The translations under genes were made by a program, and so were the position numbers. This document shows, one piece after another, positions 3,156-39,293 of a stretch of DNA of 64,000 nt; positions within the stretch are counted from its first letter, which is position 1, and the number at the start of each line of letters is the position of its first letter. Source of the stretch: Parcubacteria group bacterium 21-54-25 (lineage in GTDB: Bacteria > Patescibacteriota > Minisyncoccia > Phycocordibacterales > Phycocordibacteraceae); assembly GCA_002255585.1 (NCBI GenBank), contig NCBJ01000003.1, positions 21,571 to 85,570 on the forward strand, given 5' to 3'. The notes beneath the pieces are model-generated. The model was given only the letters and a program-made list of their open reading frames with translations. It searched no databases and was not told the origin of the DNA.

Positions 3156-3401
3156 GACGCGAACACCCGCCTGGCTGTGATTTCTGGGTACGGAATATTT
3201 TTCTGCTGAAAAATTTTCTCCTGCTCGGCCCGTCGGCCTGTGCAGAACCCCGAAAATCACAGCCAAGCGGCGTGCGCGTAACCCCTAATCAGTTAGGTAG
3301 CATGTAACGTACTATTATGGACTGACAGGTAGTGTTCGACGTTTTTGTGGCTATTTCTTACGTACGAGACACCACTGAAGAGAGTAGTGTAGGATAGGGG
3401 C

Positions 3402-4094: not shown

Positions 4095-5079
4095 GCAGTC
4101 TGGGTTCACAGCGACGCGTAAGAAACCATCTCGAGAGTACACGTCGCCTCGCCCAGCCGCTCGGCGCGATCACTCTCGGCTCGCAAATTCCGGCGCAGCT
4201 CCAAAACGGCGCCAGAATTACCATGCTGCTTCGCCTGCGAGAGTCTCTCGCGATGGTTTCTTACGCGCGCCGTACAAGGGCACTGTGGCGGCATTCCGCC
4301 GCGCGGTGTGGGTGTATTATCGAAAACATGGGCGACACAACCTACCTTGGCGAAAGACCACAAATCCCTACCGTCTCCTCGTATCGGAAGTGATGCTTCA
4401 GCAGACGCAGGTGGAGCGAGTCGTGCCGTTCTATCGCGCATTTTTGAAACAGTTCCCAACAGCGCAAGCGCTCGCAGAGGCGCCGCTCGCTCGTGTGCTC
4501 TTAGCCTGGCAGGGGCTCGGGTACAACCGTCGGGCAAAGATGCTCCAGGCGGCAGCACGTGCCATTGCTGTTCACGGAGTGCCGCGTAGTGTGGCGGCGC
4601 TCGAGGAATTGTCTGGTGTGGGGCCGTACACTGCACGCGCCGTCGCAGCGTTTGCGTGGAATACAGACGAAGTGCTTATCGAGACAAACATTCGCACCGC
4701 GGGTATCCATCATTTTTTTCCGCAGCGCCAGGACGTATCCGATACAGAAATCAAAGCCGTGCTCACGCGTGCCTTGCCGCCGGGCCGCTCACGCGAGTGG
4801 CACTGGGCACTTATGGACTACGGTGCGTATCTAAAACATTCAGGCATTTCTTACAATACGCACAGTCGTCACTACACCAAACAATCAAAGTTTACCGGTT
4901 CTTTTCGTGAGGCACGTGGAGTGGTGCTTCGTACGCTTGCTGCGGGACCCATGAGTGCGCAGCCGCTCTATTTCGTGCTTGGCAAGGACCGTGCCATACA
5001 AGTGAAAAGCGCGTGCAGGGCACTTATGTCTGAAGCACTTATCAAGAAAGTGAATCGTCGCTACCAGCTCCCAACCTAA
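4084..5079 (+). CDS. MutY/EndoIII-family HhH-GPD glycosylase (A/G-specific adenine glycosylase-like). It has no recognisable Cys4 Fe-S loop and no NUDIX-like C-domain.
   Basis: NLPWRKTTNPYRLLVSEVMLQQTQVERVVPFY...WQGLGYNRRAKML...LSGVGPYTARAV aligns to the MutY N-terminus. I moved the start to the ATG at 4084 (the track ORF starts at 3931 inside the upstream gene). Confidence 0.7.
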   Translation: MSFKQSGFTATRKKPSREYTSPRPAARRDHSRLANSGAAPKRRQNYHAASPARVSRDGFLRAPYKGTVAAFRRAVWVYYRKHGRHNLPWRKTTNPYRLLVSEVMLQQTQVERVVPFYRAFLKQFPTAQALAEAPLARVLLAWQGLGYNRRAKMLQAAARAIAVHGVPRSVAALEELSGVGPYTARAVAAFAWNTDEVLIETNIRTAGIHHFFPQRQDVSDTEIKAVLTRALPPGRSREWHWALMDYGAYLKHSGISYNTHSRHYTKQSKFTGSFREARGVVLRTLAAGPMSAQPLYFVLGKDRAIQVKSACRALMSEALIKKVNRRYQLPT

Positions 5080-14118: not shown

Positions 14119-14913
14119 ATGGAAAAACGGCCCGACGTTTCGCATGAGCGCAAGAAGGACTCGCGTGAGTCTGTGGCGGAAGGAGGGGTGCTTCGCATGG
14201 TAAGTGAATCTGTGCAGGACCTGATTATCGATGTGGAGAGAGGTCGCTCTGTTTCTCTGGAAACGCTGCAGCTTGTGCAGGCGCAGCTCGAGTACGCGCG
14301 CGAACAAGTCGCAAAACGAGAACAAGCTCTCGAAGAGGCCGAGCGCACTGCACACGAGCACCGCGAAGAAGCCACAAAAGATTCGTTGACCCATCTTTTC
14401 AACCGTCGCGGTTTCATGGAAGCCCTCAGTATGAAAATAGAACGCACGAAGGAATCGCCTACGGATCTGCTCTATGCTTTTTTTATCGATCTCGATAAGT
14501 TCAAATTTGTAAACGACACGTATGGGCACGAGATGGGTGATCGCTATTTAACAATAGTTACCGCACACTTACACAAAGCCCTGCGTCCGGACGATACTCT
14601 CGCGCGTTTCGGCGGTGACGAGTTCACTGCGCTATGTTTTGTGCGTTATAAAGGCGAACAGGCAGAAGAAAGTCACGATGTGGGAGCTTCTCACATAGCC
14701 CTCCGCATTCAATATGCCCTCGACGCTGCGCGTCAAGAATTGAACGAAGAAATTAAAAGAATATTTCCCGATGCTCCACTAGCACACGATGTCGGGAGCG
14801 TCGGATATGCTTTTTATGACCCCACCGAATCTGTCGACGCCGCAGCATTTATCAGGCAAGCTGATAGACGTATGTATGAACAAAAACAAAAAGACAGTGC
14901 TGACAAGCGCTGA
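14119..14913 (+). CDS. GGDEF-domain diguanylate cyclase with an N-terminal coiled-coil
   Basis: [27 protein letters not shown], and RFGGDEF motifs. Confidence 0.8.
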
Positions 14914-16507
14914 GGGATGGTGAGAGAGTATGGTATACCGATAGGGCACGTACGTGCATGGAGAGGTGGCTGAGCGGTCGAAGGCACCGCCTTGGAAAGG
15001 CGGCGTACGGGAAACTGTACCAAGGGTTCGAATCCCTTCCTCTCCGCAGAGTCGGACGGTCAGCACTTTTCGAGAAGCATAGGAAGGGCTTCTTGGCCTC
15101 AATGCTGAGGATCCTGCCCTTTAGAGTGGGGTTCGAACCGACCGTGCTTATGATTCGCCTCTTCAGCGCGTCATCGCCCTCGGTGTACCATTTCGCGGCC
15201 CTACTGCTAAACGAGATCAGAGCCTTGGCGGGTTCGAACCATTTGCCGTCGGAGTTCGATAGCGCTTCCTGAAGACGGGCTTGTTCTTGCTGGAGCGCGG
15301 CGCGTTGTGCCGTAAATTCCTCGTCCCCGATCAAATCTCGAATCCTCAGCGTCGTCAAATTTACGAGTGCTCTCCCCGCTTCATCAGCTGCATGCTGATG
15401 TGACGCCTTTTGCTGCGCAGACACCTCTTGCTCGGCTCTGCGTGCCTTCGCCACTTGCTCGATTCCCCAGATGTGTAGGGGATCCGGTATGCGTAGCGTG
15501 GCGAGAAACTCGCGAAAGGCTTGGTCGAGCTGGGCGGCCGACAAGGAGCGCTGCCGGCAGCGGTAATCGAGTCGACGCCTACTGCAGTGGTAGTACGTAT
15601 AATGCCGGCCGTGGCGGTTGACTTTGTGTTCTGCAGTGACCATGAAGCCGCATTCACCGCAGCGTATAAGGCCGGTAAAGGGAAAGGAGTGGCGGATCGA
15701 TTGCGGTTTCCCCGGCTTGGCGAGAAGTGCCCGCACGCGATCGTGCTCGTCGAGCGTAATCATTCGGGCGTGAGCGCCAGGGTAGATTTGTCCGCCCCAG
15801 ACGAGCACGCCCGCGTAGAACGAGTTGTGCAGGATTCGATGGATACCGCCAATGGTGAGATATTTCCCACCAATACGCTTATGCTGCCGGGTTCGCAGTC
15901 CCCACGCACGGGAATGCTCCATGAGGTCACGGAGTGAATAGGTCCCGGTGAGCGCTAGGTCGAAGAGCTTCCTCACCAAAGCGAATCGGTCAGGATCTTT
16001 GACGATTGTGCGTGACGCGGGGTCATTGAGATAGCCGATCGGCGCGCCGTTGGGGCGCCATCCACGGGCTACCTTTGCGCGATTTCCGCGCTTTACATTT
16101 TCGCTCAGGTTGTCCACGTAGTACTTCGAGTACCCGAAGATGATCGAGAGCATGAACTTCCCCTGGGAGTTGTTTTCGAAGCTGAACGTGGAGAACTTGA
16201 GGTCTTTAAGCGAGCGGCGGTCGAGGAGGTAGATGATCTTCCCGCCATCCACCGAATTGCGTGCCAGGCGATCTGGGTGCCACGTGATGATCCCGTCGGC
16301 TTCCCCGCGCTCAATCCGCTCGAGCATCACGTTGAATATCGGCCGCCCCGGGGCCTTCGCGCTATACGACTCCCGTAGGACTTCAACGACCTCCACTTCC
16401 GGGCGACCCTCAAACGCCCGTTTCAACTCCGCCTCTTGCGAGTCAATGGAAAGTACTTGGCGGTCTTCCGCTTCGCTGGATTTTCGGCAATACACAAAAT
16501 ATTTCAT
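14852..16507 (-). CDS. Large serine recombinase (resolvase/invertase-type catalytic domain plus recombinase, zinc-ribbon and coiled-coil domains). The true 3' end is uncertain because the ORF reads across tRNA-Ser on the opposite strand.
   Basis: N-terminal [19 protein letters not shown]...[13 protein letters not shown] catalytic-Ser domain. Cys cluster (CGECGF...YYHC). C-terminal tail contains GRDSNPW, which is the translation of the tRNA T-arm. Confidence 0.8.
14960..15046 (+). tRNA. tRNA-Ser (anticodon GGA), type II with a long variable arm. No CCA is encoded.
   Basis: Acceptor GGAGAGG/CCTCTCC, D arm GCTGAGCGGTCGAAGGC, anticodon stem CCGCC/GGCGG with loop TTGGAAA, variable stem GTAC/GTAC, T arm AAGGG-TTCGAAT-CCCTT. 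Confidence 0.8.
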
Positions 16508-16936
16508 AGGGTTGTGAGTAACGACGATTAAACAGTACCACGCTTCTGGCGACCGCCCGAGCCACGGGGTCGGGAGGGCGCGGCGACATGTACCCAGGCC
16601 AATCAAGGGAGGCGATCACCCCCCCGGGGGGGCGAGTGAGCGTGCAGAGCCTTTCCAGGGCGCATTTGTTGACGCAATTTGTAGCGGAGCCCGCACGGCA
16701 GTAGCGGGGCGGACGGTATAGCGCCGAAATCCAGATCCGTGCGATAGAGCGTACGGACCGTAACCCAAAGGAGCTAGGGAGGGACACGAGCCGCCCGGGT
16801 GCAATTCGCCCGTATCGGTTTGCCCGACGAGAGCGTATCCCCCGGCGGCCGGAAAACGCCGCGGGGCGGGAATACGGATGCCCTCGGCAGTGTACGGCGC
16901 CTTTCTCACGTTCGCTTCTCCAGGTACCGTGGCGGC

Positions 16937-22207: not shown

Positions 22208-23104
22208 TCACAACCAGTGCCGGAGTCCTAACAGCACCGCGCTAACCACTACCGTAACGAGAGCACCAATGACGGCGGCAAAAATCGCAATCTTAACAGT
22301 TCGGCGGTGATCTTTCTGTTGCTCCAACTGACCGAATCTGGATTCGATTTTGACGAAGTCTCGATGAAGGTCTTGGTCGCCGCTGACTCTAAGACTTTTT
22401 TCGTTCTCGAGACCGTCTGTTAGTTTCTTCACCTCTTCCTTCAGGGCCCGGATACCTTGCAACACATTTCCAAGGTCTTCCCTGAATTCCTTCTTCCAGT
22501 CGTCTTGCTCTCGGACCTCGTTCTTAAGAGAGGTAACTTCTTGTTGCGTAGCCCGGATGGCGTCTCGGAGCCCCTCTAGCCTGATCGGCTGATAGTTCTG
22601 CATGAGACGCACGACGTCGTCCGGGAAGTCCGAGATTGATTCCGGCTGAGGAAACGTATCGATCTCCCCCTCCTCAAGGACATAGAAGACGGCCGCGATG
22701 AGTTTTTTGCGCGGCCGTAATGGCCATCGTGTCGTTGAGAAGTTGTAAAGGCCGACGAGCAGATTCCCCCGGTAGAGCGGATCGATGAAAAATCCCCCGA
22801 GAACAAGGATCCCTTCGTGGCTGAGTTTCCGCTTGGGGCTCAGCATTGCAGCCATGGTGTTTGGCAGATTAAGGACTTCTTCCGTAAGGACAAACGCGAC
22901 TTCGCCTGGATCAATGAAGAGCGCGCTGCGCTGCGTCTCGGTTAGTTTCATCACATCAATCGGTCCACCTCCCGCTTTGAGGAGCCGATTGCCCATCCTA
23001 AGGTCGTACTTCGCTCCTTCTACGCACGTCTCCTCGCCGCCTCGAATGAAAGTTTGGTCCCGGACCGCCGCAAGAAGACGTTGTCCCGTGACTATTGTTG
23101 GCAT
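22208..23104 (-). CDS. dCTP deaminase/dUTPase-fold (Dcd-like) domain fused to a ~70-aa coiled-coil and a C-terminal transmembrane anchor
   Basis: GAKYDLRMGN...IDPGEVAFVLTEEVLNLP...SPKRKLSHEGILVLGGFFIDPLYRGNLLVGLYNFS is colinear with Dcd motifs. Then heptad-rich KNEVREQDDWKKEFREDLGNVLQGIRALKEEVKKL and a terminal hydrophobic helix. The start is moved to the ATG at 23104. Confidence 0.6.
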   Translation of the reverse strand: MPTIVTGQRLLAAVRDQTFIRGGEETCVEGAKYDLRMGNRLLKAGGGPIDVMKLTETQRSALFIDPGEVAFVLTEEVLNLPNTMAAMLSPKRKLSHEGILVLGGFFIDPLYRGNLLVGLYNFSTTRWPLRPRKKLIAAVFYVLEEGEIDTFPQPESISDFPDDVVRLMQNYQPIRLEGLRDAIRATQQEVTSLKNEVREQDDWKKEFREDLGNVLQGIRALKEEVKKLTDGLENEKSLRVSGDQDLHRDFVKIESRFGQLEQQKDHRRTVKIAIFAAVIGALVTVVVSAVLLGLRHWL

Positions 23105-23340
23105 TGTAATGGCGCCTCCCGTGTCTTGGACGTGCTGCGGAGTACCGTCGACCCGTCCATCGGTTTGTTTGCGTGGGGTCATGGCTTTTTCCTCCTTGTT
23201 GAACTGACCGGCAGAACACCACGAGAACCGTGCCGTGCTGCCGGCAGTTCGCAAGAAGAACCACCCCGCGATCTTTCCGCGTCAAAGAGCTACCCAAGAA
23301 CCAGTATATCAGGTAAAAAATTTCAGGAACGCAACCGGAC

Positions 23341-23883
23341 ATGAAGGATGCTGCGGCCAATTCAGTCCTCGTGCTTGCCGTGAGTCCCGTGGCCCGTGGG
23401 TTTGCGTATGCCGCTTTCGAGGGTCCGCAGACGCTTCTTGACTGGGGACGAAAGGAGGCGCGCGTCAACCGCTACGCGTACGCGCGCCGGGAGCTTGCGG
23501 TTCTAGTCGGCTGGTACCGGCCGGAGCTCGTGGTGCTTGAGGGGGCTCGGCGCCACGAGGTCGAAGCGTTCGTCGATCAGTTTGAGCGGCATGCGCGCGC
23601 GGGCTATTCGCACCGAGCGGTTTGGCCAGCAGCGGGTTGCGGAGGTGTTCTCGGAGTTTGGCGCCACCCGGAAGTTCCAGCGCGACCGACTGCTCGGGCA
23701 ATGGTTCCCGGAGCTTGCGGGCGTGGTCAGAATGCGCCCGCCAACCTCGACGACAGAGCGCTGCGCCGCGAATGCATTCGACACCATCGCTCTCGCGCTC
23801 GTCCACTTCTACCTCGCCGCCTGATCGGGCAGGCCCGCTCGGGGACCGAACGAAGTCCAGTTCGAAGGAACCGGGCTTCGTGA
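23341..23883 (+). CDS. RuvC/YqgF-like resolvase-like protein, paralog of 18985..19506. The first catalytic Asp is replaced (LVLAVSPVARG).
   Basis: AFEGPQTLLDWGRKEARVNRYAYARRELAVLVGWYRPELVVLE parallels VFEGPLRLVDWGVKETRENKNRAGIQKIGELLALYHPSVLVIE in copy A. Confidence 0.4.
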   Translation: MKDAAANSVLVLAVSPVARGFAYAAFEGPQTLLDWGRKEARVNRYAYARRELAVLVGWYRPELVVLEGARRHEVEAFVDQFERHARAGYSHRAVWPAAGCGGVLGVWRHPEVPARPTARAMVPGACGRGQNAPANLDDRALRRECIRHHRSRARPLLPRRLIGQARSGTERSPVRRNRAS

Positions 23884-23909
23884 CGGCAACGGAGCAGGAG
23901 ATAGGCACG

Positions 23910-24413
23910 ATGAGCGAGAAACGGGAAGTGTTCCGTCGTGTGGAGACCGATGGCCCCTGCACGGCCATACGCGAGCTCACGCCCGACGAGGTGATCGGGG
24001 AAGCGAAGCGGATCATCAAGGCGCGCTTCCGGCGCGGGCGCAGGATCGCCCAGCCCAGGGACGCCGAGGATTACCTCATCCTCACCCTTGGCGACCGCGA
24101 GCAGGAGGTCTTCTCCTGCCTCTATCTCGACCAGCGCCACCGGGTAATCAGCTGCGACCTCATGGCCTTCGGCACCCTGGCCGAGGCCCGAGTCTACCCG
24201 CGGGAGATCGTCAAACGAGCCATCCTTTACAACGCGAGTTCGATCATCTTCGCCCACAACCATCCCTCGGGCGTCGCCGAGCCCAGTAAGGACGACGAGG
24301 CGCTCACGCGCCGACTTTCCGACGCCCTTCGCCTCATCGACGTCCGCGTACTCGACCACTTCGTCGTAGGGGGAGGCGAGACGGTGACCTTCGCCGAGCG
24401 CGGGTTGCTGTGA
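23910..24413 (+). CDS. radC: RadC-like JAB/MPN domain protein (second copy, ~70% identical to 20950..21453)
   Basis: HNHPSGVAEPSKDDEALT motif and the same length (167 aa). Confidence 0.85.
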   Translation: MSEKREVFRRVETDGPCTAIRELTPDEVIGEAKRIIKARFRRGRRIAQPRDAEDYLILTLGDREQEVFSCLYLDQRHRVISCDLMAFGTLAEARVYPREIVKRAILYNASSIIFAHNHPSGVAEPSKDDEALTRRLSDALRLIDVRVLDHFVVGGGETVTFAERGLL

Positions 24414-24420
24414 GGCATTT

Positions 24421-24447
24421 GGTCGCCCTTTTAGGGCGGCCTTTTTT
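24421..24447 (+). terminator. Rho-independent terminator after radC copy B
   Basis: GGTCGCCC-ttttag-GGCGGCC followed by TTTTTTG. Confidence 0.6.
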
Positions 24448-24530
24448 GTCATTGGATGACCGATGGTCGGAGGATGCCGATTTGACAGATAAGCATAAAC
24501 TTAGTATATTACTTATACAGGAGCTTAGTT

Positions 24531-24800
24531 ATGACACCCAGCGAAATTGTAAATGTTCGGCGTGCCTTGGGGCTTTCCCAGGTTGAGTTTGCGCGCTTAT
24601 TGGACGTTCATTCTATGACCGTGAGTAAATGGGAGCGCGGCCTCGTTCCACCGACCCCATATCAGGTTGCACTTATGGACCAGTTTCGTCGCGCGACCCA
24701 AGCGCAACAGGCCAAGGTCGACGAGCAGCTAAAGCATCTGCTGGTCAGTGCCGGCGTCATAGCGGCCCTGTTTTTCCTCCTCAAATCCGCTAACGAGTGA
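24531..24800 (+). CDS. XRE-family HTH protein with a C-terminal transmembrane helix
   Basis: RRALGLSQVEFARLLDVHSMTVSKWERG HTH. C-terminal LLVSAGVIAALFFLL helix. Confidence 0.6.
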   Translation: MTPSEIVNVRRALGLSQVEFARLLDVHSMTVSKWERGLVPPTPYQVALMDQFRRATQAQQAKVDEQLKHLLVSAGVIAALFFLLKSANE

Positions 24801-24806
24801 GGCGGT

Positions 24807-25187
24807 ATGTCTCCATTTAACCCCTTCGCCATTCTTGTACTCTCCCGTCCAAAGCTCACCGGTCTCGGTGAACATTGGGGGGTCCGACTTCCCGATGGTC
24901 GCGTAGCGCATTGTATGCCTGTGATTGGGGTCTGCATTAGCTCATTTGAAGACTTTTCGGCAGGCAAGGACGTCGTGGTGCGACGTGAGGTGTCTCCGGC
25001 GCTACTTAGCGAAGTGTATCGTCGACTGAACGTGGCCCTTTTTTATCCGCGGCCATACGACTTGCTCTCGTGGAACTGCGAGAGCTTCGCGAACTGGCTA
25101 ACTTGTGGGGAGCCCGAAAGCGCGCAAGTCGCCGGCATCGGCATCCTTTTCTTCCTAACTTTAGTAGTGGCTGGGCTTTCCAGGTGA
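24807..25187 (+). CDS. LRAT/NlpC-P60-superfamily (H-box ... NCE-x-F catalytic Cys) domain protein with a C-terminal TM helix
   Basis: HWGV (His) and LSWNCESFANWL (catalytic Cys motif NCExF), as in LRAT/PPPDE-type domains. Confidence 0.45.
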   Translation: MSPFNPFAILVLSRPKLTGLGEHWGVRLPDGRVAHCMPVIGVCISSFEDFSAGKDVVVRREVSPALLSEVYRRLNVALFYPRPYDLLSWNCESFANWLTCGEPESAQVAGIGILFFLTLVVAGLSR

Positions 25188-25444
25188 AGCGCCCCAGTCT
25201 TTACGCACCCTTCGGCCTTACACAACGGCCCGGACCATTGGCCACACGTCATACCATTGTGGTCAACACGGGGATAACGAGACACGGGTGTTGTACCTTC
25301 TTGATACCTGAATAGGTGTGCGTACGGTGAGGAGGGGAGGAGCGAGGCGCAGCCTCGTGGGCAAGGACCTGTTAGGATCTAGCCACATCGAACAATGCAG
25401 TAGGACTGGAGGAACGGCGTGCTATCATTAGCGCATTCAGTAGG

Positions 25445-27220
25445 ATGCGCGCGCAGAATATGAGTATGAGCTTAACTCGCCAACACGTGCTCGATTTGGA
25501 AGACTACAAGGTGCGACCGGCGTTATCCCCGATCGTGCAAAATGCCGTTGATGTCTTGGCCAGCGCGCATGGGACAGAGCGTGGGGCTATCTACACCCGC
25601 CAGGAAGTCGTGGAGTTTATTCTCGATCTCGTTGGGTACACAACGGATCATCCACTTCATGAGGCGCGATTGCTGGAACCCTCGGTGGGCGAGGGCGACT
25701 TTCTCGTTCCAGCGGTTAAGCGTCTGCTGGCTTCCTACGCAACCAGCCGTCGTCCGCACTCGGCGCTTGTGGATGACCTCGCTCCCGCGCTCACGGCGGT
25801 CGAGCTGCATTCCGACAGTTTGACGCTAGTCAAGGAGAAGGTTCTTGGCGTGCTCGGCGAATTTGACGTTACGGGGCCTTCGGCGCGCCAGTTGCTCGAT
25901 GCTTGGCTGAGTAACGGCGACTTCCTCCTTACAAACCTTCCCCGTCCATTCACGCATGTTGTGGGTAATCCGCCGTATGTCCGGCAGGAGCTCGTCCCCG
26001 ACGCGCTCCTGCAAGAGTACCGGCGGCGATACGAAAGCATCTATGATCGGGCGGATCTGTATGTGCCATTCATCGAGCGCTCGCTAACGTCCCTTGAGCC
26101 GGGTGGCGTTGTGGGCTTTATATGTACAGATCGATGGATGAAGAATCGGTACGGAAAGCGGCTTCGGCAGATCATTTCTGAGGGCTACCACCTCCGCAGC
26201 TATGTCGACATGGTTGGGACGGACGCATTCCATTCCGATGTCACGACCTATCCGGCAATTACCGTGATCGCGCGCGAGAAGGCGGGCCCCACGCGGCTTG
26301 CAGGGCAGCCTAAGATCGATCGGGACTCGTTGCGTCAGCTCGCCGAGCTGATGAATGCAAGGCAAATCGCACCCGACGGCCCTGTCGCTGAACTAGCGGG
26401 GGTCGTCGACGGCGCAGATCCCTGGCTGCTGCAATCTGCCGATCAGCTCCAGGTGGTCCGGCGCCTAGAGCAGGAGTTTCCGATGCTCGAAGAAACGGGT
26501 TGCCAGGTAGGTATTGGCGTTGCAACTGGTGCCGATCGGGTGTTCGTAGCCCCGTTCGAGGAGCTGGACGTTGAGCCATCCCGCAAGCTGCCACTGGTGA
26601 TGACGAAGGACATTGCTTCGGGAGTGGTGAAGTGGCGGGGGTTCGGCGTCGTGAATCCCTTTGAGGCGGACGGCCAGCTGGTGGATCTTGCGGCTTACCC
26701 GCGGCTACGGCGGTATCTTGAGCACCACCGGGACACGGTCGCGCGTCGTAATTGCGCGACGAGACATCCGAATGGCTGGTACCGGACGATTGACCGGATT
26801 TACCCTGAGCTAGCCACGACGCCAAAACTCCTAATTCCAGATATCAAGGGTGAAGCGAACGTAGTATACGAGAGCGGGAAGCTCTATCCTCACCACAACC
26901 TGTATCACGTGACCTCGAAAGCGTGGGATCTTCGGGCGCTTCAGGCAGTCCTGCGCTCCTCGGTTGCGAAGCTCTTCGTGTCGACGTACTCAACCCGGAT
27001 GCGCGGAGGCTATTTGCGGTTTCAGGCGCAGTACCTTCGCCGTATTCGGATCCCTCAGTGGGATGAGGTACCAGACGACCTCCGGAGGAGTCTCACTGAG
27101 GCCGCAAAGTCGGGTGATACCGAAGCATGCAACCGCGCGGTATTTGTGCTCTATAGGCTGACACAAGAAGAACAAGCCGCAATTGGTGGCAGCGGAGCCC
27201 AAGATCGATATGACAATTGA
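25445..27220 (+). CDS. N6-adenine DNA methyltransferase (gamma class, Eco57I/TaqI-like family), the modification subunit of a Type II R-M system
   Basis: Motif [11 protein letters not shown]-terminal AdoMet-binding region. 591 aa with a C-terminal target-recognition region. Confidence 0.8.
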
Positions 27221-27947
27221 CCTCGCGGATTTCGATACCAAGGCACGGGAGGCGATTAAGGCGTTCTGGGGAAACCGCGAGGCGGCGCGCCAGCGGCAGA
27301 TCGCACAAGGAAAAGCGGACCAAGGAGAGCGGGCGGGTGTCACGGCGGGCAAGAACATGGACGGTTTCGTGTTGCTCGCGCAGGACATCGTACGCCAAAA
27401 CGGCTTACCGCACGCCGACATTTTCCTTAAGCGACGTGTCCTCACCCTCCCAGGCTATTTTCGTCCGACTAAGCAATGGGACATGCTCGTGATGAACCAA
27501 GGCCGCCTTGTGGCTGCCATTGAATTCAAGAGCCAGGTGGGGCCCTCTTTCGGGAATAACTTTAACAATAGGACAGAGGAGGCGATTGGCACCGCTCTCG
27601 ACCTACGAACCGCGTTCCGAGAAGGTGCCTTTGGGGATAGCCAGGCTCCATTCGTCGGTTGGTTGATGTTGGTCGAAGACTGTGAAGGTTCTCGATCTCC
27701 GGTGCGGGATCGCTCCCCCCACTTCCCGGTATTCGCAGATTTCCAAGGCTCCTCGTACGCGGATCGCTATAACATCCTGTGCAGGAAGCTTGTCCAGGAA
27801 CAGCTGTATACGGCAGCGTCGGTGATTATCTCCAGCCGATCCGCGGTTGACACCGGAGCCTTCGCAGAGCTGCTACCGTTGACTGGCTTGCGGACGTTCG
27901 TAGCAAGCTTGGGAGGACACGTTGCGGCCGAGGCGGCTCGGGGCTGA
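27210..27947 (+). CDS. Type II restriction endonuclease (PD-(D/E)xK). Its start overlaps the MTase stop by 11 nt.
   Basis: [21 protein letters not shown] carries D...ExK. The M-then-R layout and sizes (~590/245 aa) resemble PaeR7I/XhoI-type systems. The family is not confirmed. Confidence 0.5.
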
Positions 27948-28279
27948 GCCGAAATCAATCGTCCCGGGACCGTTTTTCCCGAGGCCATTTCACTCAAGAA
28001 TGCGAAAATGGTGGCGGCGTTGGGTCCGATGGCGGGCTACGGCGGCGGAGGATGCGGCCTGGGGGCGCGCGCGTCTACCAAAGATATACAAGCTTGCTCT
28101 GAGTGGCTGGGTACGGCATATGGTGGCGAGAAAGCGGAGCCAGGTCTGCGGAAACGTTACGAGACAGTATTGCAGTGGCCAGTTTAGGCCGAGCATAGAT
28201 TTGGGACATAGTCAGTCCCGGCGGACTCTTGCCCAAAGTGACGTGAGTGGGCGGCGCTCATGAGACATAGGTAAATTTT

Positions 28280-28570
28280 ATGGTCAAAGTTCTCAGTCCT
28301 CTACAAATCGTGGGCCTGGTTTGGTTCTGCGCATCCATTATATTGGCGCTTAGCACCACAGTTTATTTCAGATTCTGGTTGCGTAGGCGCGACGTAAAGG
28401 TAATGCTGGGTTTGGCGGCGGTTCCCGGCTATCTAGAGATGCTCTATATGAAATGGTGTCGAGAACACTCGCAGAGCGGGACGGTAGTTCTTTCGCTCCG
28501 TTTCGTGCTGCTTGTTAATGTATTGTTGTCAGCACTGATCGTGGTTCCGTTTGTAATCATGAAAAATTGA
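28280..28570 (+). CDS. Small membrane protein (3 predicted TM helices) upstream of the SIR2-like gene
   Basis: 96 aa, hydrophobic, low-GC segment. Confidence 0.35.
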   Translation: MVKVLSPLQIVGLVWFCASIILALSTTVYFRFWLRRRDVKVMLGLAAVPGYLEMLYMKWCREHSQSGTVVLSLRFVLLVNVLLSALIVVPFVIMKN

Positions 28571-28716
28571 TGACTCGTGAATTATTTTTCACGGCTACCC
28601 AAAGACCCCTACCCCGTCGGCGTGGTTTGCGGCATTCAGCGGGATCCCATAGAAAAGAACGAGGCAAGAATATCACAATGCTGCATTATTTATGGCGTCG
28701 TGTTTAGAAACGCACT

Positions 28717-30486
28717 ATGGAAGACCCGCTCATGCAAATGCCCGTTGCCTCTACTGTCGAGTCGCAGAAAAACCAAGTCGCTTTCCTATTTGGCGCGGGG
28801 GCGTCAATGGAAGCGGGCGTTCCTGATACCGTGTCGCTAATCAACGAATTCCGTGTGAAAGATGACGATGCTAATGTCAGCGAATTTCTGGAACTGCTTG
28901 GCAGATGGGCTAAGCAGCAGGATCGTCCTCTTGATATAGAACTCGTCCTCGAAACACTCCAGCGTCTGGCCGACTGGAAAGAAGACCCGTTGTCAGGGTT
29001 TGCGGACAAACCAATCAAGATCGACGGGCTGGATGCCCAAACGCTTCTCAACCGACTACGGGATTTCATAAAAAATAAGGTCTTGGTCGATGCCGAGCAT
29101 ATTACCTATCTGGAACCGCTCCGCGGCTTCATCGACGCATACCGACCCCTCCATCTCTACTCCGCGAACTACGATACCGCTATCGAGGTGCTCTGCGCCG
29201 AGCACAAACTGAAATACCGGGACGGATTTGATGAGGCATGGAATCCCGCTCTCTTAGATGAGCCGAACGTTGATCTCCGTCTATTCAAGCTTCATGGCTC
29301 GGTGACGTGGTATCGAAGCAACCGTGGGCGATTTTTGAAAATCCCGGTCCTGCTCCACGACAGCTCCGTCGAATTGGTGACTAAGGAACGCGCTGAAGCC
29401 CTAATGCTTTACCCCGCACAGAAATTCGAGTATGTGGAGCCACTGTTTGAACTGTTGCTGGCCGCCAAGCGGCGGTTAGCGGAGAGTCAGGTGTTAATCG
29501 TGGTCGGCTACTCATTTCGGGACGAGCATATTCGTCAGTTGCTATGGGATATAGCCCGCGAATCGCCCAGGTTCATCGTCATTCTGATCGGACCCAAGGC
29601 ACGAGATATTTATCAAGAGCGACTCAAATGGTACGAACGAGACAGGATCCCCTCGGCGCTCCAGGGGCGGGTGCTCTGCCTCCCTTTTTTGTTCGGGAGG
29701 GTCTTTCCCGCGCTGCAACCGGAATTGTTACCACGGGTGCTCCAGTTTCGCGAGGACTTGGAGCAACAGTTAGCACAGGAGCGACGAGGTCATCCTGGGA
29801 TTTGGGAGGGTGCTGTGCTGAATGCGGCTCGCGGCGGAGATTACGAAGTAGTCCGCAGAATCCTAGAAAAGCCGCAGGTGTTAGCGCAACAGCTCAACTA
29901 TGCGCAACAATTTGATTGCCTGGTTCTAAGCCTTTTCCATGCGGCTGCAAACAGCGATGTTGTCGCAGGAAGATATTTCTGGGACAAGCTGCATGATACG
30001 TTGCGAGAGATCATTGACCGTATCACTCTCAACGTACAATTCGGCGGATCTTCCAGCTGGCTCGTAGTGTCCGTTAATAAAAACAACCGAAGCGAGAATT
30101 TTCAGAATCTTATCCGCGGGCTTGCGGCTCCGCATCAGGAGATAGATCGGCGGCGTCGGTGGATGGGTGATGCCGAGTCCTCATCAGAATACCTGCGGGC
30201 GGTGAATCGGGTCTTAACGGATCTACAGAGTGCGATGCAGATCTGGTCCAACGTAGGGCAAGTCGCGCCGAGCGACTATGCGGCAGCACGCCAACAGGAA
30301 ATTCCAGGGGATCTAAAGGGGGAGATTCTGGATAAACTTGATCGGTTGCGGGAAAAAAATTCCGAGTCCTGGTCGGACGTCGACGAGCGGCAACTAGAGC
30401 AGGGGCTCAGGGGAACCGAACAAGCCGTCATTAACAAGGTGTTTCAGGAGTTAGACCAGTTGTGGGGCGAGAATAGGGAATTGTAA
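28717..30486 (+). CDS. SIR2_2-family (defence-type sirtuin-like NADase fold) protein with a ~300-aa helical C-terminal domain
   Basis: VAFLFGAGASMEAGVP (Rossmann Gly-rich), LYSANYDTAIE (catalytic Asn), FKLHGSVTW (catalytic His), VVGYSFRDEHI, as in ThsA/DSR SIR2 domains. Confidence 0.75.
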   Translation: MEDPLMQMPVASTVESQKNQVAFLFGAGASMEAGVPDTVSLINEFRVKDDDANVSEFLELLGRWAKQQDRPLDIELVLETLQRLADWKEDPLSGFADKPIKIDGLDAQTLLNRLRDFIKNKVLVDAEHITYLEPLRGFIDAYRPLHLYSANYDTAIEVLCAEHKLKYRDGFDEAWNPALLDEPNVDLRLFKLHGSVTWYRSNRGRFLKIPVLLHDSSVELVTKERAEALMLYPAQKFEYVEPLFELLLAAKRRLAESQVLIVVGYSFRDEHIRQLLWDIARESPRFIVILIGPKARDIYQERLKWYERDRIPSALQGRVLCLPFLFGRVFPALQPELLPRVLQFREDLEQQLAQERRGHPGIWEGAVLNAARGGDYEVVRRILEKPQVLAQQLNYAQQFDCLVLSLFHAAANSDVVAGRYFWDKLHDTLREIIDRITLNVQFGGSSSWLVVSVNKNNRSENFQNLIRGLAAPHQEIDRRRRWMGDAESSSEYLRAVNRVLTDLQSAMQIWSNVGQVAPSDYAAARQQEIPGDLKGEILDKLDRLREKNSESWSDVDERQLEQGLRGTEQAVINKVFQELDQLWGENREL

Positions 30487-30859
30487 CGCTTCCGTCACCT
30501 GTAGGAACGCGGAGCTCGAAGCGATGCCGAGGAAGGCCAGTTTGGGCTGGAAGGCATCGTTCAGGTACGGCGAACCATGGTCATGAGGTAAGGACGGACC
30601 GTCGGTTCTTTCCTCGGCAAAGTCGTCAACGCACAAGTTCCTGCCCGGGGAGGACCGATCACAGGATCTCGATTGGGCAGTCGCCGTGTCAGTGTTGATG
30701 CGAGTGGGGATGTTGCCGGGATCGGACGGGATTGCATCACAATCCCATCACAGTCACCGAGTGATGGATCCGGTAACATCCTGAAAAATAATGTGATGGA
30801 ATGTGATGAAAACCGCCCCAACCAGATCGACTAAAAACTACTTAACTGCTTGTTTAAAT

Positions 30860-30891
30860 TGGCGCCCCGGTCAGGATTCGAACCTGAGACC
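30860..30891 (-). other. Partial tRNA 3' end (T arm plus acceptor 3' strand plus CCA). It is a putative att site remnant next to the tyrosine integrase.
   Basis: The minus strand reads GGTCTCAGG-TTCGAAT-CCTGACC-GGGGCG-CCA. No matching 5' half is present upstream. Confidence 0.5.
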
Positions 30892-30986
30892 TTCCCCTTA
30901 GGAGTGGAAAGGTCGCTGTGCAACCTATTGAACTCGTGATGGATAAATGGCACCATCACAAAACCATCACACGAGAACCGGCACTC

Positions 30987-31997
30987 ATGGCCACCTTCCG
31001 GAAAATGGCATCCGGCCACTGGCAAGCGATCGTGCGGCGCAAGGGCTACCCGCACGCCGCGCGTACCTTCCGCACCAAGGCGCTCGCAGAGCGCTGGGCA
31101 CGCGGTATCGAGAACAGCATCGACGAGGGCGAGTATGCGGCCGCCTCCCGCATATCCGTTGGCGAACTTCTCGCTCGCTACGAGGAGCGCTTCACGCCAG
31201 CCAAGCGATCCCGCGTGAAGGAGAGGTCCCGAATCAAGACACTGACCCGGCACCTCGGCGAACTGCCGCTCTCCGTCCTCACGCCAGAGGCCATCGTCTC
31301 CTACATTGAGGACCGGTTGGAAGAGGTGGCTTCCGATACAGCGCGCAAGGAGCTGCACACGCTCTCCGTCATCGTGGACACCGGCATGGCGCTTTGGGAG
31401 ATCGGCCTGCGCGTGAATCCGGTGGTGGTCGCCAAGGCCATCCTGCACGCCACGAAACTCCTCAAGCCCGGGGTGAAGCGCGAGCGCCGGCCGACCCCCA
31501 AGGAGCTTGCGGCACTGGCGAAATCGAGCCACTGGCCGCTGTGGGAGTATGCCATCGAGACGGCCATGCGCCGCGGCGAGATCGCAGTGCAGCGGCGCGA
31601 ACACCGATCCGGAAACGTGCTGCATATTCCGCAGACGAAGACCGACCAGCCCCGTACCATTCCTCTGTCGCGGCGGGCCATGGAGATCCTCGACGGCCTG
31701 CTGGAGCGCGGCGACGGCGCGGTTTGGGGCATTACGGCCGACGCCATGACCCGCGCGTTCGCGCGCGAGTGCCGGGCGGCCAACATCGCCGACCTGCGCC
31801 TGCACGACCTGCGGCACGAAGGAACGTCACGGCTGTTCGAGAAGGGATGGACCATCCCGCAGGTGGCGGCGGTCACCGGCCATTCGGACTGGTCCTCCCT
31901 GAAGCGCTACACCAAGCTGAACCCGTCGCGGCTGGCGGCGAAGCTGGGTCGACGTGGCAAACGCCGCCAGGCCCGGGCCGACCTCTCGGATGGTTAA
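30987..31997 (+). CDS. int: Tyrosine recombinase/phage-type integrase
   Basis: C-terminal LHDLRHEGTSRLFEKGWTIPQVAAVTGHSDWSSLKRYTKL (R...HxxR...Y catalytic box). N-terminal SAM-like arm. Adjacent to the tRNA fragment. Confidence 0.85.
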   Translation: MATFRKMASGHWQAIVRRKGYPHAARTFRTKALAERWARGIENSIDEGEYAAASRISVGELLARYEERFTPAKRSRVKERSRIKTLTRHLGELPLSVLTPEAIVSYIEDRLEEVASDTARKELHTLSVIVDTGMALWEIGLRVNPVVVAKAILHATKLLKPGVKRERRPTPKELAALAKSSHWPLWEYAIETAMRRGEIAVQRREHRSGNVLHIPQTKTDQPRTIPLSRRAMEILDGLLERGDGAVWGITADAMTRAFARECRAANIADLRLHDLRHEGTSRLFEKGWTIPQVAAVTGHSDWSSLKRYTKLNPSRLAAKLGRRGKRRQARADLSDG

Positions 31998-32226
31998 CCT
32001 ACACCCCGATGAACAGGGAGGCCGACTGCGGCGCGAGCGTGGGTTTACTCATGGAACAGTGCGGCTAACGGGCCGCAGAGTGAGTGTGGCACTGTGTAGA
32101 ATGCAGGTATGCACCAAGACGGCCTGTGCCTTGCCCATGCATCTGAGCCCCGTTATTGGGGCACGTGAAGACAGCTAACGGCCGGGACCATCCTGGCGGT
32201 TAACGCAAACAAAGGACGGAGAACGC

Positions 32227-33399
32227 ATGAACAACACCGAGGATTCGAATTGGTTCGATGACTACGCCGAGGGTGTAGATGACCTCCAAGTCGAGGAGTA
32301 CGACATAACGGCTTCTCCAAACGATTTCAATGTCATGACCCTTCATAGCTTCGTTGAGTCTGGAGCAGTACGCATCCCTGGCTTTCAGCGCAACTTCGTT
32401 TGGGACCTCGGGCGAGCGTCAAAACTCATAGAATCCCTGATCCTGGGTTTGCCGGTGCCGCAGCTCTTCCTCTACGAGCAGGCACGCAACAGGTTCCTGG
32501 TTATCGACGGACAACAACGGCTCATGTCCATCTACTACTTCATCAAGAAACGCTTCCCTCGGAAGGAGAAGCGGGTTGAGCTTCGCGCGATCTTCGATCG
32601 TGAGGGCCGGATTCCTGACGAGATACTTCATGAAGATGAGTACTTCCAGACCTTCAACTTAAGGCTACCGGAGCGGCTGCCAAATCACGAGAACAAGTTC
32701 AAGGGCCTGAACTATGCAACACTCGGCGAATACAAGGCGCAGTTTGATCTTAGGCCAATCCGGAACATAGTGGTGAAGCAGAATGCTCCTTCAGGAGATG
32801 ATTCATCAATGTATGAGGTCTTCAACCGACTCAATTCTGGCGGCATCAACCTGCGGCCGCAGGAGATCCGCACCAGCATGTATCATTCTGCATTCTATGA
32901 AATGCTGTACCACATCAACGCGGAGCCGGGGTGGCGGAAGATACTGCAGTGGTCTGAACCGGACCTACATATGAAGGACATCGAGATCCTTCTGCGCGGT
33001 TTCGCTATGCTCATCGATGGCGAGCACTACGCGCCATCGATGGTGAAGTTCCTGAATCAGTTCTCAAAGAAATGCGAAACGCACGATGCACAGCAGAACA
33101 CCTATCTCCGTGATCTGTTCTTTTCGTTCCTCGGCGCGTGTCACGATCTTCCGGACGACGCGTTCGTGAACAAGAAGAACAAGCGGTTCAATATCGCTCT
33201 TTTCGAGGCTATCTTCTCGGCCTCATGCGAACGCGCATTCGGCGAACGACGCCCGGTCGCGGGTGAACTACAGCGTGAGGCCATCGAAGCGCTCGAGACA
33301 GATGAGGAGTTTCTCGAAGCGGCACTTGAAGGAACAACGCGAACGGTCAATGTACAGAAACGCCTCAGCCGAGCACGGGAAATCGTGGGCGCAATGTAG
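32227..33399 (+). CDS. DUF262 (ParB-like/GmrSD N-terminal-type) domain protein
   Basis: IPGFQRNFVWDLGRASKLIESLILGLPVPQLFLYE...FLVIDGQQRL (DGQQR motif). Confidence 0.8.
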   Translation: MNNTEDSNWFDDYAEGVDDLQVEEYDITASPNDFNVMTLHSFVESGAVRIPGFQRNFVWDLGRASKLIESLILGLPVPQLFLYEQARNRFLVIDGQQRLMSIYYFIKKRFPRKEKRVELRAIFDREGRIPDEILHEDEYFQTFNLRLPERLPNHENKFKGLNYATLGEYKAQFDLRPIRNIVVKQNAPSGDDSSMYEVFNRLNSGGINLRPQEIRTSMYHSAFYEMLYHINAEPGWRKILQWSEPDLHMKDIEILLRGFAMLIDGEHYAPSMVKFLNQFSKKCETHDAQQNTYLRDLFFSFLGACHDLPDDAFVNKKNKRFNIALFEAIFSASCERAFGERRPVAGELQREAIEALETDEEFLEAALEGTTRTVNVQKRLSRAREIVGAM

Positions 33400-33404
33400 G
33401 GAAA

Positions 33405-33974
33405 GTGGAGATGAGCCCAACCGTTGTCGACCGTCTACACGGTGAGTATTCTGCCCTCCTTGAGCTCCCCCAACTCGCCGGAGAGCCCTCCCTGCGCAGT
33501 GCCGCTGACGATAGTTTCCGCAAGGCGTTGCTGATGGCCGCTGCGAGCCACTTCGAGCAGCGCATGACTGATGCAGTACTCCAGTTCACAGCAGAAGCAA
33601 CGGCTAACAATCATGTCCTGACGTGGCTTGTAAGGAACCGTGTGGTCAGGAGGCAATATCACACGTGGTTCGATTGGGATGGGAAGAACGCCAACAGCTT
33701 CTTTGGGATGTTCGGCGACGAGTTTCGCAAGGCCATGAATGCTTCTGTCGCTCAGGATGACGACATTAAGGCATCCATTCAGGCGTTTTTGGAAGTCGGT
33801 CGCGAGCGAAATCGTCTGGTCCACCAGGATTTTGGGAGCTTCACGCTGGAAAAGACCTCGGAAGAGATCTATATACTCTATGGAACGGCGCTTCGCTTCG
33901 TTGATTGGTTCCCGGGAGCAATCAAGAGGTACGATGGTGAGCAGAGTTTGACGACAGAAAGCTCGGACGGATGA
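33405..33974 (+). CDS. HEPN-like (Rx4-6H) domain protein. It is the partner of the DUF262 gene, separated by a 5-nt gap.
   Basis: A conserved RERNRLVHQDF (R-x4-H) motif near the C-terminus with a helical context. The assignment is tentative. Confidence 0.4.
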   Translation: MEMSPTVVDRLHGEYSALLELPQLAGEPSLRSAADDSFRKALLMAAASHFEQRMTDAVLQFTAEATANNHVLTWLVRNRVVRRQYHTWFDWDGKNANSFFGMFGDEFRKAMNASVAQDDDIKASIQAFLEVGRERNRLVHQDFGSFTLEKTSEEIYILYGTALRFVDWFPGAIKRYDGEQSLTTESSDG

Positions 33975-38449: not shown

Positions 38450-38615
38450 TATGGCACTAGTCATCTGAGACTAGAGGCTCGCTTTAGTTCTCTTTGCGTT
38501 CTGCGGTTCAGTTATATCCTGCTCATAGTCATACTTATTTATCGGTCGCGTGAGACCACTGCTACACGTCGGAAGGGACTATGGGCTATAGTCTCTCAAG
38601 ACTAGTGGTGTCTCC
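38450..38615. promoter_or_regulatory. Putative origin/iteron region. Repeated GAGACTAG/GACTAGTGG motifs flank an AT-rich stretch, upstream of the RepA-like gene.
   Basis: cactagtcatctgagactagagg and tatagtctctcaagactagtggtg around the AT-rich cagttatatcctgctcatagtcatacttatttatc. Confidence 0.3.
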
Positions 38616-38669
38616 TTGTTTGGGCTGGTGGTTCTCTATATGGTTAGCCTATCGTTGTTCCGGAGGACC

Positions 38670-39176
38670 ATGAAAATGACGGAAGGTCAGAATACCGCGA
38701 TCGCGGAAGTCATCTCGCTCCCAAAGAAGGATTCCTCACGGGCGTCCACGAAGAAATGGGGCGCGGCGGTGATGCAGCTTGGCTTCAGTGTCCTCCCATC
38801 CCTCGTTTTCCGCGCGCAGGCACGCCTTGGGCTAAGCCCGACACAGCTAGCAATCCTGCTCCAGTTGGCCGACTACTGGTGGGACCATCAGCGCAAGCCC
38901 TATCCGAGCAAGAGAGCGCTCAGCGAACGTCTCGGCCTGGGTCCCCGCCAAATTCAGCGTCACATCGCTGAGCTCGAGGCTGCGGAATTGGTGCGGCGGA
39001 TTGAACGGCGAGCCGCGCATCGGGGTAAGCTCAGCAATGAGTACGATCTCAGTGGACTTGTGGAGCGCCTGAAGAAGCTTGAGCCCGAGTTTCGCGAAGC
39101 GGGTCAATCGAAACGCCGCGCGAGCCGTCGTGGCGGTCTCGGGAAGCATGGGTTGTCCGGTAGCAAGAAGCGTTAA
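38670..39176 (+). CDS. Winged-helix DNA-binding protein (RepA/HTH_36-like, putative replication initiator or regulator)
   Basis: LSPTQLAILLQLADYWWDHQRKPYPSKRALSERLGLGPRQIQRHIAELEAAELVRR, basic C-terminal tail, GGAGGA RBS. Confidence 0.45.
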   Translation: MKMTEGQNTAIAEVISLPKKDSSRASTKKWGAAVMQLGFSVLPSLVFRAQARLGLSPTQLAILLQLADYWWDHQRKPYPSKRALSERLGLGPRQIQRHIAELEAAELVRRIERRAAHRGKLSNEYDLSGLVERLKKLEPEFREAGQSKRRASRRGGLGKHGLSGSKKR

Positions 39177-39183
39177 TCGTAGA

Positions 39184-39293
39184 AGCGGCGTAGCTCAGCG
39201 GGAAGAGCGTCCCTGCTTTCGACATCCACTGAAGCCAACATCTCCAGTGTATGGGCGGGAAGGTCACAGGTTCAAGTCCTGTCGCCGCTACCA
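39184..39293 (+). tRNA. tRNA gene with a ~30-35-nt intervening sequence in the anticodon region. The probable anticodon is UCG (Arg), uncertain. CCA is encoded.
   Basis: Perfect acceptor (AGCGGCG/CGCCGCT), D arm (GCTC-AGCGGGAA-GAGC) and T arm (ACAGG-TTCAAGT-CCTGT), then A-CCA. The anticodon stem CCTGC/GCGGG encloses loop TTTCGAC plus an insert with its own hairpin (CCACTG..CAGTG). Confidence 0.55.

Follow-up and report, generated by a model that had tools for sequence, protein, structure and literature searches.

At positions 39184-39293 of its + strand, the window (the whole 64,000-nucleotide (nt) stretch of contig NCBJ01000003.1 analysed here) encodes a tRNA-shaped RNA that directly follows a gene for a winged-helix protein. 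The Rfam tRNA model (RF00005) matched positions 39184-39290 on the + strand with 51 bits (gathering score, 29; E, 5.2e-8), and this generic model was the only one to match the element, with no intron family and no transfer-messenger RNA (tmRNA) among the results of the Rfam scan of the window. The anticodon region comprises 43 nt where the Rfam model has 9, which amounts to ~32 extra nt in the window copy. Written 5' to 3', the RNA (39184-39293, +) reads AGCGGCG-UA-GCUC-AGCGGGAA-GAGC…ACAGG-UUCAAGU-CCUGU-CGCCGCU-A-CCA, and in its minimum free energy (MFE) fold the cloverleaf is kept and the anticodon region forms one long arm. The first-pass annotation of this DNA had described acceptor, D and T arms with an encoded CCA end, as well as an anticodon region overlong by ~30-35 nt whose insert forms a hairpin of its own. 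Both the tRNA body and the extra length were borne out, and the CACUG/CAGUG inner helix of the hairpin is present in the MFE fold.

The body of the RNA, as placed by both the Rfam alignment and the MFE fold, includes the acceptor 5' strand AGCGGCG (39184-39190), which pairs with CGCCGCU (39283-39289), a D arm with G18, G19 and A20 (39193-39208, with a connector to 39211) and a T arm with the loop UUCAAGU (39266-39282). The acceptor 3' strand is followed by the discriminator A at 39290 and the encoded CCA at 39291-39293. With regard to the long arm, the MFE fold pairs a lower-stem 5' strand CCUGCU (39212-39217), which contains the former anticodon stem, with GGCGGG (39254-39259), after which the variable loop AAGGUC runs to 39265. 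A 5-nt bulge, UUCGA (39218-39222), present on the 5' strand only, corresponds to the former anticodon-loop positions 33-37. Beyond it lies the inserted hairpin (39223-39253), with the upper stem CAU-C-CACUG / CAGUG-U-AUG (39223-39231 / 39245-39253) and an apical loop of 13 nt (39232-39244). All of these features are on the + strand. In the dominant fold a canonical anticodon stem of 5 base pairs (bp) with a 7-nt loop is therefore absent, the triplet being located in the 5-nt bulge of a continuous helix.

In its default mode ARAGORN did not call the element and found no tmRNA in the window, and its sole ordinary tRNA there was a tRNA-Ser(GGA) at 14960-15047. With the intron search enabled, ARAGORN reported the element as a tRNA with a 33-nt intron, named Glu(ttc) in a shifted 4-bp stem register. 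The earlier assignment of the anticodon as UCG (Arg) stands in part, since an arginine-type triplet does adjoin the insert, but the program's own reading is Glu(ttc) and not Arg(tcg).

The gene in front of the RNA (38676-39176, +) encodes a protein of 166 aa with matches to Pfam HTH_36, DnaD_N and the RP-C N-terminal domain. Its called start at 38676 lies 8 nt after a GGAGGA motif, and the longest open reading frame (ORF) begins at 38616. The protein has a long C-terminal helix and a basic RRGG tail, and its AlphaFold model (pLDDT 70) was closest among PDB folds to the DnaD N-terminal domain and then to winged helix-turn-helix (wHTH) domains of the MarR type, at E >= 1e-3. NCBIfam and PADLOC gave weak, generic wHTH, Csa3 and RepC matches, none specific enough to name the protein. 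A 'RepA-like' gene had been noted at this place; a gene does lie directly upstream, but its product is this winged-helix (hereafter HTH) protein. That it is simply a plasmid Rep was considered and rejected: a Methylocaldum plasmid that carries the cassette has its own annotated RepA, and relatives of the protein that lack the RNA reside on ColE1-type (RNA I/II) plasmids.

The stop codon is separated from position 1 of the RNA by 7 nt (39177-39183, +), a putative leader that RNase P would remove. No promoter of the RNA's own was detected and there is no room for one, which argues for co-transcription with the HTH gene. The genes downstream vary across loci and the next gene in the window is on the other strand, so that the RNA is not the leader of a downstream gene. 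The relic gene fragment previously proposed downstream was not recovered: the identical public contigs have no gene annotated between 39294 and 39714, and similarity searches of this interval gave no match.

To estimate how widespread this architecture is, one genome per species was scanned with a pattern of fixed D- and T-arm boxes at an abnormally long spacing, which returned at least 119 stretches. The family statistics given below use the matches listed, i.e., at least 85 loci with at least 88 full-length copies, from which 83 distinct copies were aligned. The same architecture was present in all of these full-length copies and loci, and more than 90 copies were identified in total, on plasmids and integrated elements. 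Most of the scan copies belong to Alphaproteobacteria (Caulobacter, Phenylobacterium, Brevundimonas, Mesorhizobium, Elioraea, Roseomonas and Microvirga), and other carriers include Beta- and Gammaproteobacteria, Terracidiphilus (Acidobacteria) and Binatia. Among the cultured carriers are Elioraea tepidiphila DSM 17972, Roseomonas rosea DSM 14916, Caulobacter sp. FWC26 (p1) and Mesorhizobium isolates. Sequence identities of 65-80% across the family exclude a single recent clone. Three plasmids carry full-length copies with the insert, namely those of Acidisoma sp. PAMC 29798, Caulobacter sp. FWC26 and Methylocaldum szegediense. In viral contigs, 2 of the 15 matches were family RNAs. A metagenome scan based on the insert junctions yielded 115 distinct matches, 110 of which were due to chance; the 5 real ones agree with the family picture.

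The HTH gene is the only conserved neighbour of the RNA. An HTH homologue, detected by profile, ends 5-20 nt (mode 5-7) upstream on the same strand in ~70 of the 85 loci, and in 4 loci it overlaps the RNA by ~10 nt. In most of the HTH-negative loci the RNA is preceded, at a distance of 3-11 nt, by the end of another ORF, e.g., of an XRE-type HTH protein. No other gene family was present in more than 7 loci, and these families are the usual cargo of plasmids or integrative and conjugative elements (ICEs). The identities of RNA and protein are correlated (Spearman 0.38; Mantel 0/999), which suggests that the two travel together. Tandem arrangements were also detected, either as two RNA copies ~50 nt apart after one HTH gene (loci L016, 5091-5352, and L029) or as two complete HTH-plus-RNA units (L089, 2069-2884, and L133/L134, with L133 at 3572-4390). 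The protein family is broader than the RNA family and extends to tiny ColE1-type plasmids (pMUT1) and to Acinetobacter plasmids without a tRNA-like RNA. Among 11 close relatives of the window's protein, 6 adjoin a family RNA, and about half of its closest relatives lack one. Where the RNA is absent, an intrinsic terminator or a GC hairpin comes after the stop codon, never an ordinary tRNA. Intron-less alleles of the RNA after related HTH genes were not found.

Several lines of evidence indicate that the fold of the RNA is under selection. Compensatory double changes occur in 13 of the 22 cloverleaf pairs, and all four cloverleaf helices covary, as does the inserted helix. For example, a T-stem pair is GC in 45 copies and AU in 32, and an anticodon-stem pair is CG in 35, UA in 24 and UG in 22. 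G-U pairs are common and A-C pairs rare, which indicates that the sense (+) strand is the one that folds, as RNA. For the insert, covariation was evaluated on an alignment that was selected on predicted folds and anchored on the two helix junctions. In this alignment all 8 anchored pairs of the upper stem show double-sided changes. Double-change cells numbered 104, compared with 38±4 in shuffles (0/500 shuffles reached the observed value), and the covariation score was 0.527 vs. 0.231 in shuffles and 0.12-0.15 when the partners were slid by 1-3 columns. In the lower stem, 99.6% of the cells are paired, a percentage inflated by this selection on folds; 4 of its 6 pairs show double-sided changes, and the closing pair is U-G in 39 of 41 copies.

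One design dominates among the individual folds. Its lower stem of ~7 bp is separated from an upper stem of 8-11 bp by a 5-nt bulge in the 5' strand, and an apical loop caps the arm, which is coaxial and roughly 17-20 bp long. None of the 44 canonical folds has a bulge on the 3' strand. The extra length is narrowly constrained (25-46 nt; median, 32). In the 44 copies examined for the bulge, U33 is kept in 39, C35 in 43, and position 36 is G in 27 and U in 16; position 37 is A in 39 and a purine (A/G) in 43. The resulting consensus, U-N-C-(G/U)-(A/G), is uncertain in register by ~1 nt in some copies. Position 34 is free to vary. The bulge triplets are nearly all arginine anticodons (UCG, UCU, CCU, ACG, CCG), and the ACU or GCU of a few copies would correspond to serine codons. 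In ~44 of the 83 copies the apical loop has the motif U-(G/C)-R-C-A-(A/C)-Y at its centre. Outside the long arm, A20 is present in 80 copies and G18/G19 in 81, and CCA is encoded in about half. The discriminator (N73) is C in 35 copies, U in 29, A in 16 (including the window copy) and G in 3, i.e., a pyrimidine in 64 of 83, and position -1 is U in 52 of 83 (63%) and A in the window. Among ordinary tRNAs, the 3' half of the body is closest to initiator tRNA-fMet, above any tRNA-Arg in the comparison, and the D arm differs; a BLAST search with the intron-less body gave no match in E. coli genomes.

The element therefore has every part of a tRNA body, including the G18G19/T-loop elbow, together with a bulged long arm that is under selection, and it is fixed to the 3' end of a winged-helix gene. 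Our results suggest that it is probably a functional, processed but non-decoding tRNA-like RNA that belongs to a conserved family of plasmids and integrative elements. The non-decoding character is indicated by the burial of the triplet in a continuous helix, by the free position 34 together with the few ACU/GCU copies, and by the mostly pyrimidine discriminator. With the intron search, ARAGORN called 82 of the 83 copies intron-containing tRNAs, with isotypes that varied among Arg (29), Glu (19), His (14) and others, and this instability can be explained if excision of the hairpin would not restore a canonical loop. The previous suggestion of a cargo tRNA is in line with the carriage of the family by mobile elements; the element is, however, part of a fixed cassette with the winged-helix gene and is most likely not used for decoding.

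It is possible to outline how such an RNA would be made and used. It would be transcribed as the 3' end of the winged-helix gene's mRNA, and RNase P would cut ~7 nt beyond the stop codon. At its other end the RNA would be trimmed, with the CCA either carried or added. The cut would release a stable, L-shaped RNA and at the same time set the 3' end of the protein's mRNA. The released RNA may then act by tRNA mimicry, with its body recognised by tRNA-handling proteins and its bulge and apical loop read by a specific partner. Candidate partners include arginyl-tRNA synthetase (ArgRS), the winged-helix protein of the cassette and a host tRNA-targeting enzyme, each of which we regard as doubtful. 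ArgRS is included because A20, C35 and G/U36 are retained, and these nucleotides are known ArgRS identity elements in E. coli tRNA-Arg. C35 and G/U36 (43 of 44 copies each) are located in the bulge with some ambiguity in register, and the purine discriminator (A/G73) of tRNA-Arg is not kept across the family, though the window copy has A. The mobile element may profit from the RNA by regulating the HTH gene, by becoming established in a new host or by countering host defence.

These arguments need to be interpreted with caution, as several observations weigh against them. We infer the cleavage by RNase P, the stability of the RNA and the existence of any partner. The bulge retains U33, C35, G/U36 and the purine at 37 as well as a functional anticodon loop does, a pattern that a spliced tRNA would explain too. 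A dedicated ribonucleoprotein is not required, given that about half of the close relatives of the winged-helix protein, and those on tiny ColE1-type plasmids, do without the RNA. In addition, conservation of the D and T arms is partly an artefact of the pattern used for the genome scan. The percentage of paired cells in the anchored alignment is inflated by its selection on predicted folds, although the double changes relative to the slid controls are unaffected by this.

The short intron that had been proposed initially deserves the closest comparison. On this account the element would be an intron-containing tRNA-Arg whose ~32-nt hairpin is removed by a so far unknown bacterial pathway (e.g., an endonuclease acting at the helix junction plus RtcB-type ligation), leaving a decoding tRNA for the rare arginine codons of the mobile element. 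The insert does lie at or next to the canonical 37/38 position, within ~1 nt, and the nearly invariant A20, the loop-like bulge with its arginine triplets and the intron calls of ARAGORN are all in keeping with such a tRNA. However, a single bulge on the 5' strand, with no bulge on the 3' strand, means that there is no bulge-helix-bulge motif, and the tRNA splicing endonuclease is not known from bacteria. With 25-46 nt the insert falls far below the size of a group I intron, and it matched no intron family in Rfam. Excision would leave 1-2 extra nt or a G at position 38, with a 6-7-bp stem or a 9-nt loop, and the ACU/GCU copies would misread serine codons if charged with arginine. Furthermore, no intron-less allele follows any related HTH gene examined, and the insert helix is under structural selection and has a loop motif, which is unusual for a sequence that is to be discarded. 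We therefore consider an intron-containing tRNA-Arg unlikely. The cassette could instead be a replication or establishment module, in which a DnaD-N/RepC-N-like initiator would act with the tRNA-shaped transcript, or with the same cloverleaf in transferred single-stranded DNA, as a primer or primosome-assembly signal just downstream of the rep-like gene. The only resemblances of the protein (DnaD_N, RP-C, the weak NCBIfam RepC match and the DnaD N-terminal domain as best fold) point in this direction, the layout can be likened to transcript-primed origins just after rep genes, and the tight gene-to-RNA spacing of the cassette would suit the use of a rep transcript. Plasmids and conjugative or mobilisable elements carry the cassette, and genes for T4CP and Replic_Relax proteins are nearby in the window. 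Such a function is nonetheless rather improbable, considering that carriers have other replicons (RepA in Methylocaldum; a typed replicon on Caulobacter p1), that pMUT1-type plasmids with the protein alone have ColE1 RNA I/II, that no iterons or locus-specific repeats flank the RNA, and that about half of the close protein relatives lack it. The retained tertiary-contact nucleotides, the G-U pairs and the frequent CCA also speak for an RNA that is processed and against a site in the DNA.

The element could also be a tRNA gene that is decaying into a pseudogene, or a hybrid remnant of an att site left when integration or excision took place in the anticodon loop. In favour of such an origin, crossover by integrases is common in anticodon loops, the mosaic island around the cassette encodes recombinases of the serine and tyrosine types, and a related locus (L281) has an integrase gene directly against the 3' half of the RNA. 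Yet the 64-kb window contains no same-strand repeat of the element of ≥12 nt, the architecture with its insert recurs in >90 loci of several phyla with compensatory changes and a constrained length, and synteny is fixed to one gene and not to recombinases. We accordingly regard decay, or the att-site disruption that the first-pass annotation had raised for this tRNA, as highly implausible.

The favoured non-decoding tRNA mimic can be extended into a more specific proposal, which we put forward tentatively. The family may represent a previously unrecognised tRNA mimic of proteobacterial mobile elements, with an arginine-type anticodon held in the bulge of a long helix and the RNA cut from the tail of a regulator's mRNA, that serves as a decoy, sensor or substrate for a tRNA-recognising enzyme; or else it may be the first short, protein-dependent tRNA intron of bacteria. 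For the decoy, sensor or substrate version, candidate targets are ArgRS or an anticodon nuclease of host defence, with the RNA expressed when the element enters a cell.

Comparisons with known systems are beneficial for placing the family. Like intron-containing pre-tRNAs of archaea and eukaryotes, the element has a short extra sequence 3' of the anticodon and a helix stacked on the anticodon stem, and tRNA finders report it as an intron. It differs in having one 5-nt bulge instead of the 3-4-3 bulge-helix-bulge, in its bacterial host, in an insert helix and loop motif conserved by covariation, and in the non-canonical residual loop. The group I introns of bacterial tRNAs (cyanobacterial tRNA-Leu(UAA) and alphaproteobacterial tRNA-Arg(CCU)) also interrupt the anticodon loop, and one classical case is thus an alphaproteobacterial tRNA-Arg; these introns, however, are ≥200 nt long with a catalytic core (P3-P9), whereas the insert is a simple hairpin of 25-46 nt without an Rfam intron match. 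The proposed processing resembles that of mascRNA from MALAT1, a tRNA-shaped 3' module of a longer transcript that RNase P and RNase Z excise as a small non-decoding RNA, which sets the upstream 3' end. In contrast, mascRNA is eukaryotic, unrelated in sequence and follows a non-coding RNA, while the RNA described here follows a bacterial mRNA with a predicted cut 7 nt past the stop codon. The tmRNA and YrlA are bacterial RNAs whose tRNA bodies (acceptor and T arm, with a D-like part) serve recognition by tRNA enzymes and which have a different module in place of the anticodon arm. The present RNA retains the entire cloverleaf, with the anticodon loop alone converted into a bulged helix, and there is no tag frame, pseudoknot or Ro-binding module; for the tag reading frame and pseudoknots of tmRNA, this follows from the lack of a tmRNA match in ARAGORN and Rfam. 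The tRNA genes of phages, plasmids and ICEs, some of which have altered anticodon loops, are likewise tRNA-derived cargo of mobile elements, for which an anti-nuclease role is conceivable. Those tRNAs decode, have 7-nt loops and usually occur in arrays, whereas the triplet of our element is not in a normal loop and the RNA is tied to one winged-helix gene.

Non-decoding tRNA-shaped RNAs (tmRNA, the partners of Y RNAs, viral tRNA-like structures and mascRNA) have each revealed distinct biology. The present family is found widely, is under strong constraint and stays with one gene on plasmids and integrative elements, but tRNA finders in default mode miss it, and annotation pipelines most likely label it as an odd or intron-containing tRNA. 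The combination of one gene and one 110-nt RNA provides a small system for studying how mobile elements use the tRNA-processing and tRNA-recognition machinery of their hosts, and the family makes it possible to test directly if short inserts other than group I introns can be removed from bacterial tRNAs. Inventories of tRNAs should be cautious about counting such genes as tRNA-Arg, tRNA-Glu or tRNA-His. A full-text literature search retrieved no description of this RNA, an absence that is no proof of novelty; a tRNA-like RNA family with a bulged long arm that is coupled to a winged-helix gene is apparently undescribed.

The sequences around the cassette were also searched for regulatory or replication features. 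Upstream of the HTH gene, at 70-220 nt before its start codon, the GC content falls to 44-47% in 38455-38607. This AT-richer stretch contains a 22-nt inverted repeat of GACTAG-like units (38455-38476 / 38586-38607; 82% complementary), which may be the promoter or operator of the cassette, or an oriT-like (origin of transfer) site after the Replic_Relax gene. In a search for iterons or other origin features near the RNA, nothing was found downstream and only this inverted repeat upstream of the HTH gene. A local target of the hairpin was not evident within -900/+600 nt, where complementarity and repeats were no better in the own locus than across loci. A perfect 12-nt complement exists between 38779-38790, in the HTH coding sequence, and 39227-39238, in the upper stem and loop (CACUGAAGCCAA); it is probably due to chance, considering that the own locus scored no better than others and that no such pairing was present elsewhere.

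Other elements were recovered by the same scan. True intron-bearing archaeal tRNAs (Thermoproteota, Nanoarchaeota) matched and look different. A separate over-long class of ~95 nt, with the same D and T boxes and an unrelated insert, was detected on Acinetobacter chromosomes (L015, L022 and L074) and recurs in IMG/VR viral contigs (L143, L146-L148, L150 and L154). Genomes of the Candidate Phyla Radiation (CPR) contributed tRNA-like genes with long insertions or partial tandem duplications, including Candidatus Peribacteria (L023, L046) and Saccharibacteria (L047). At locus L281, a tyrosine integrase gene (Arm-DNA-bind_3 and Phage_integrase; 2089-3453, -) ends inside the 3' half of the RNA (2002-2111). 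Islands that have inserted into a tRNA gene show this arrangement, and the tRNA-like gene may therefore serve integrases as attB. The 13-kb Acidisoma plasmid (L001/L004) and the 25.7-kb Methylocaldum plasmid (L124) share genes for DUF2188, a GIY-YIG nuclease and a small serine recombinase. The RefSeq numbering of both plasmids skips one locus tag at the RNA, and the Prokaryotic Genome Annotation Pipeline (PGAP) has thus probably placed an RNA gene at this position.

The mosaic island that contains the cassette starts, in the window, after the tRNA-Ser, where the GC content jumps. The tRNA-Ser(GGA) gene (14960-15047, +) is overlapped by the 3' end of the longest ORF (14852-16606, -) of a large serine recombinase with Resolvase, Recombinase and Zn_ribbon_recom domains, and this region probably marks the left end of the island and the site at which it integrated. 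The island also carries two T4CP-like genes, a Replic_Relax gene and a 3'-5' exonuclease gene. An identical cassette is present on the public contigs DAICZD010000003.1 and DAOMBW010000002.1, both labelled Parcubacteria group bacterium 21-54-25. This label may be wrong, as the gene content looks proteobacterial and the relatives of the cassette belong to Proteobacteria or other non-CPR phyla. Between the tRNA-Ser and the cassette, positions 22208-33974 hold a dense run of defence-type genes, which comprises a dCTP deaminase-like gene (22208-23254, -), an Eco57I-like methylase (25445-27220), an XhoI nuclease (27183-27947), a SIR2-like gene (SIR2_2; 28717-30486), a tyrosine integrase (30918-31997), GmrSD (32227-33399) and a RiboL-PSP HEPN gene (33405-33974).

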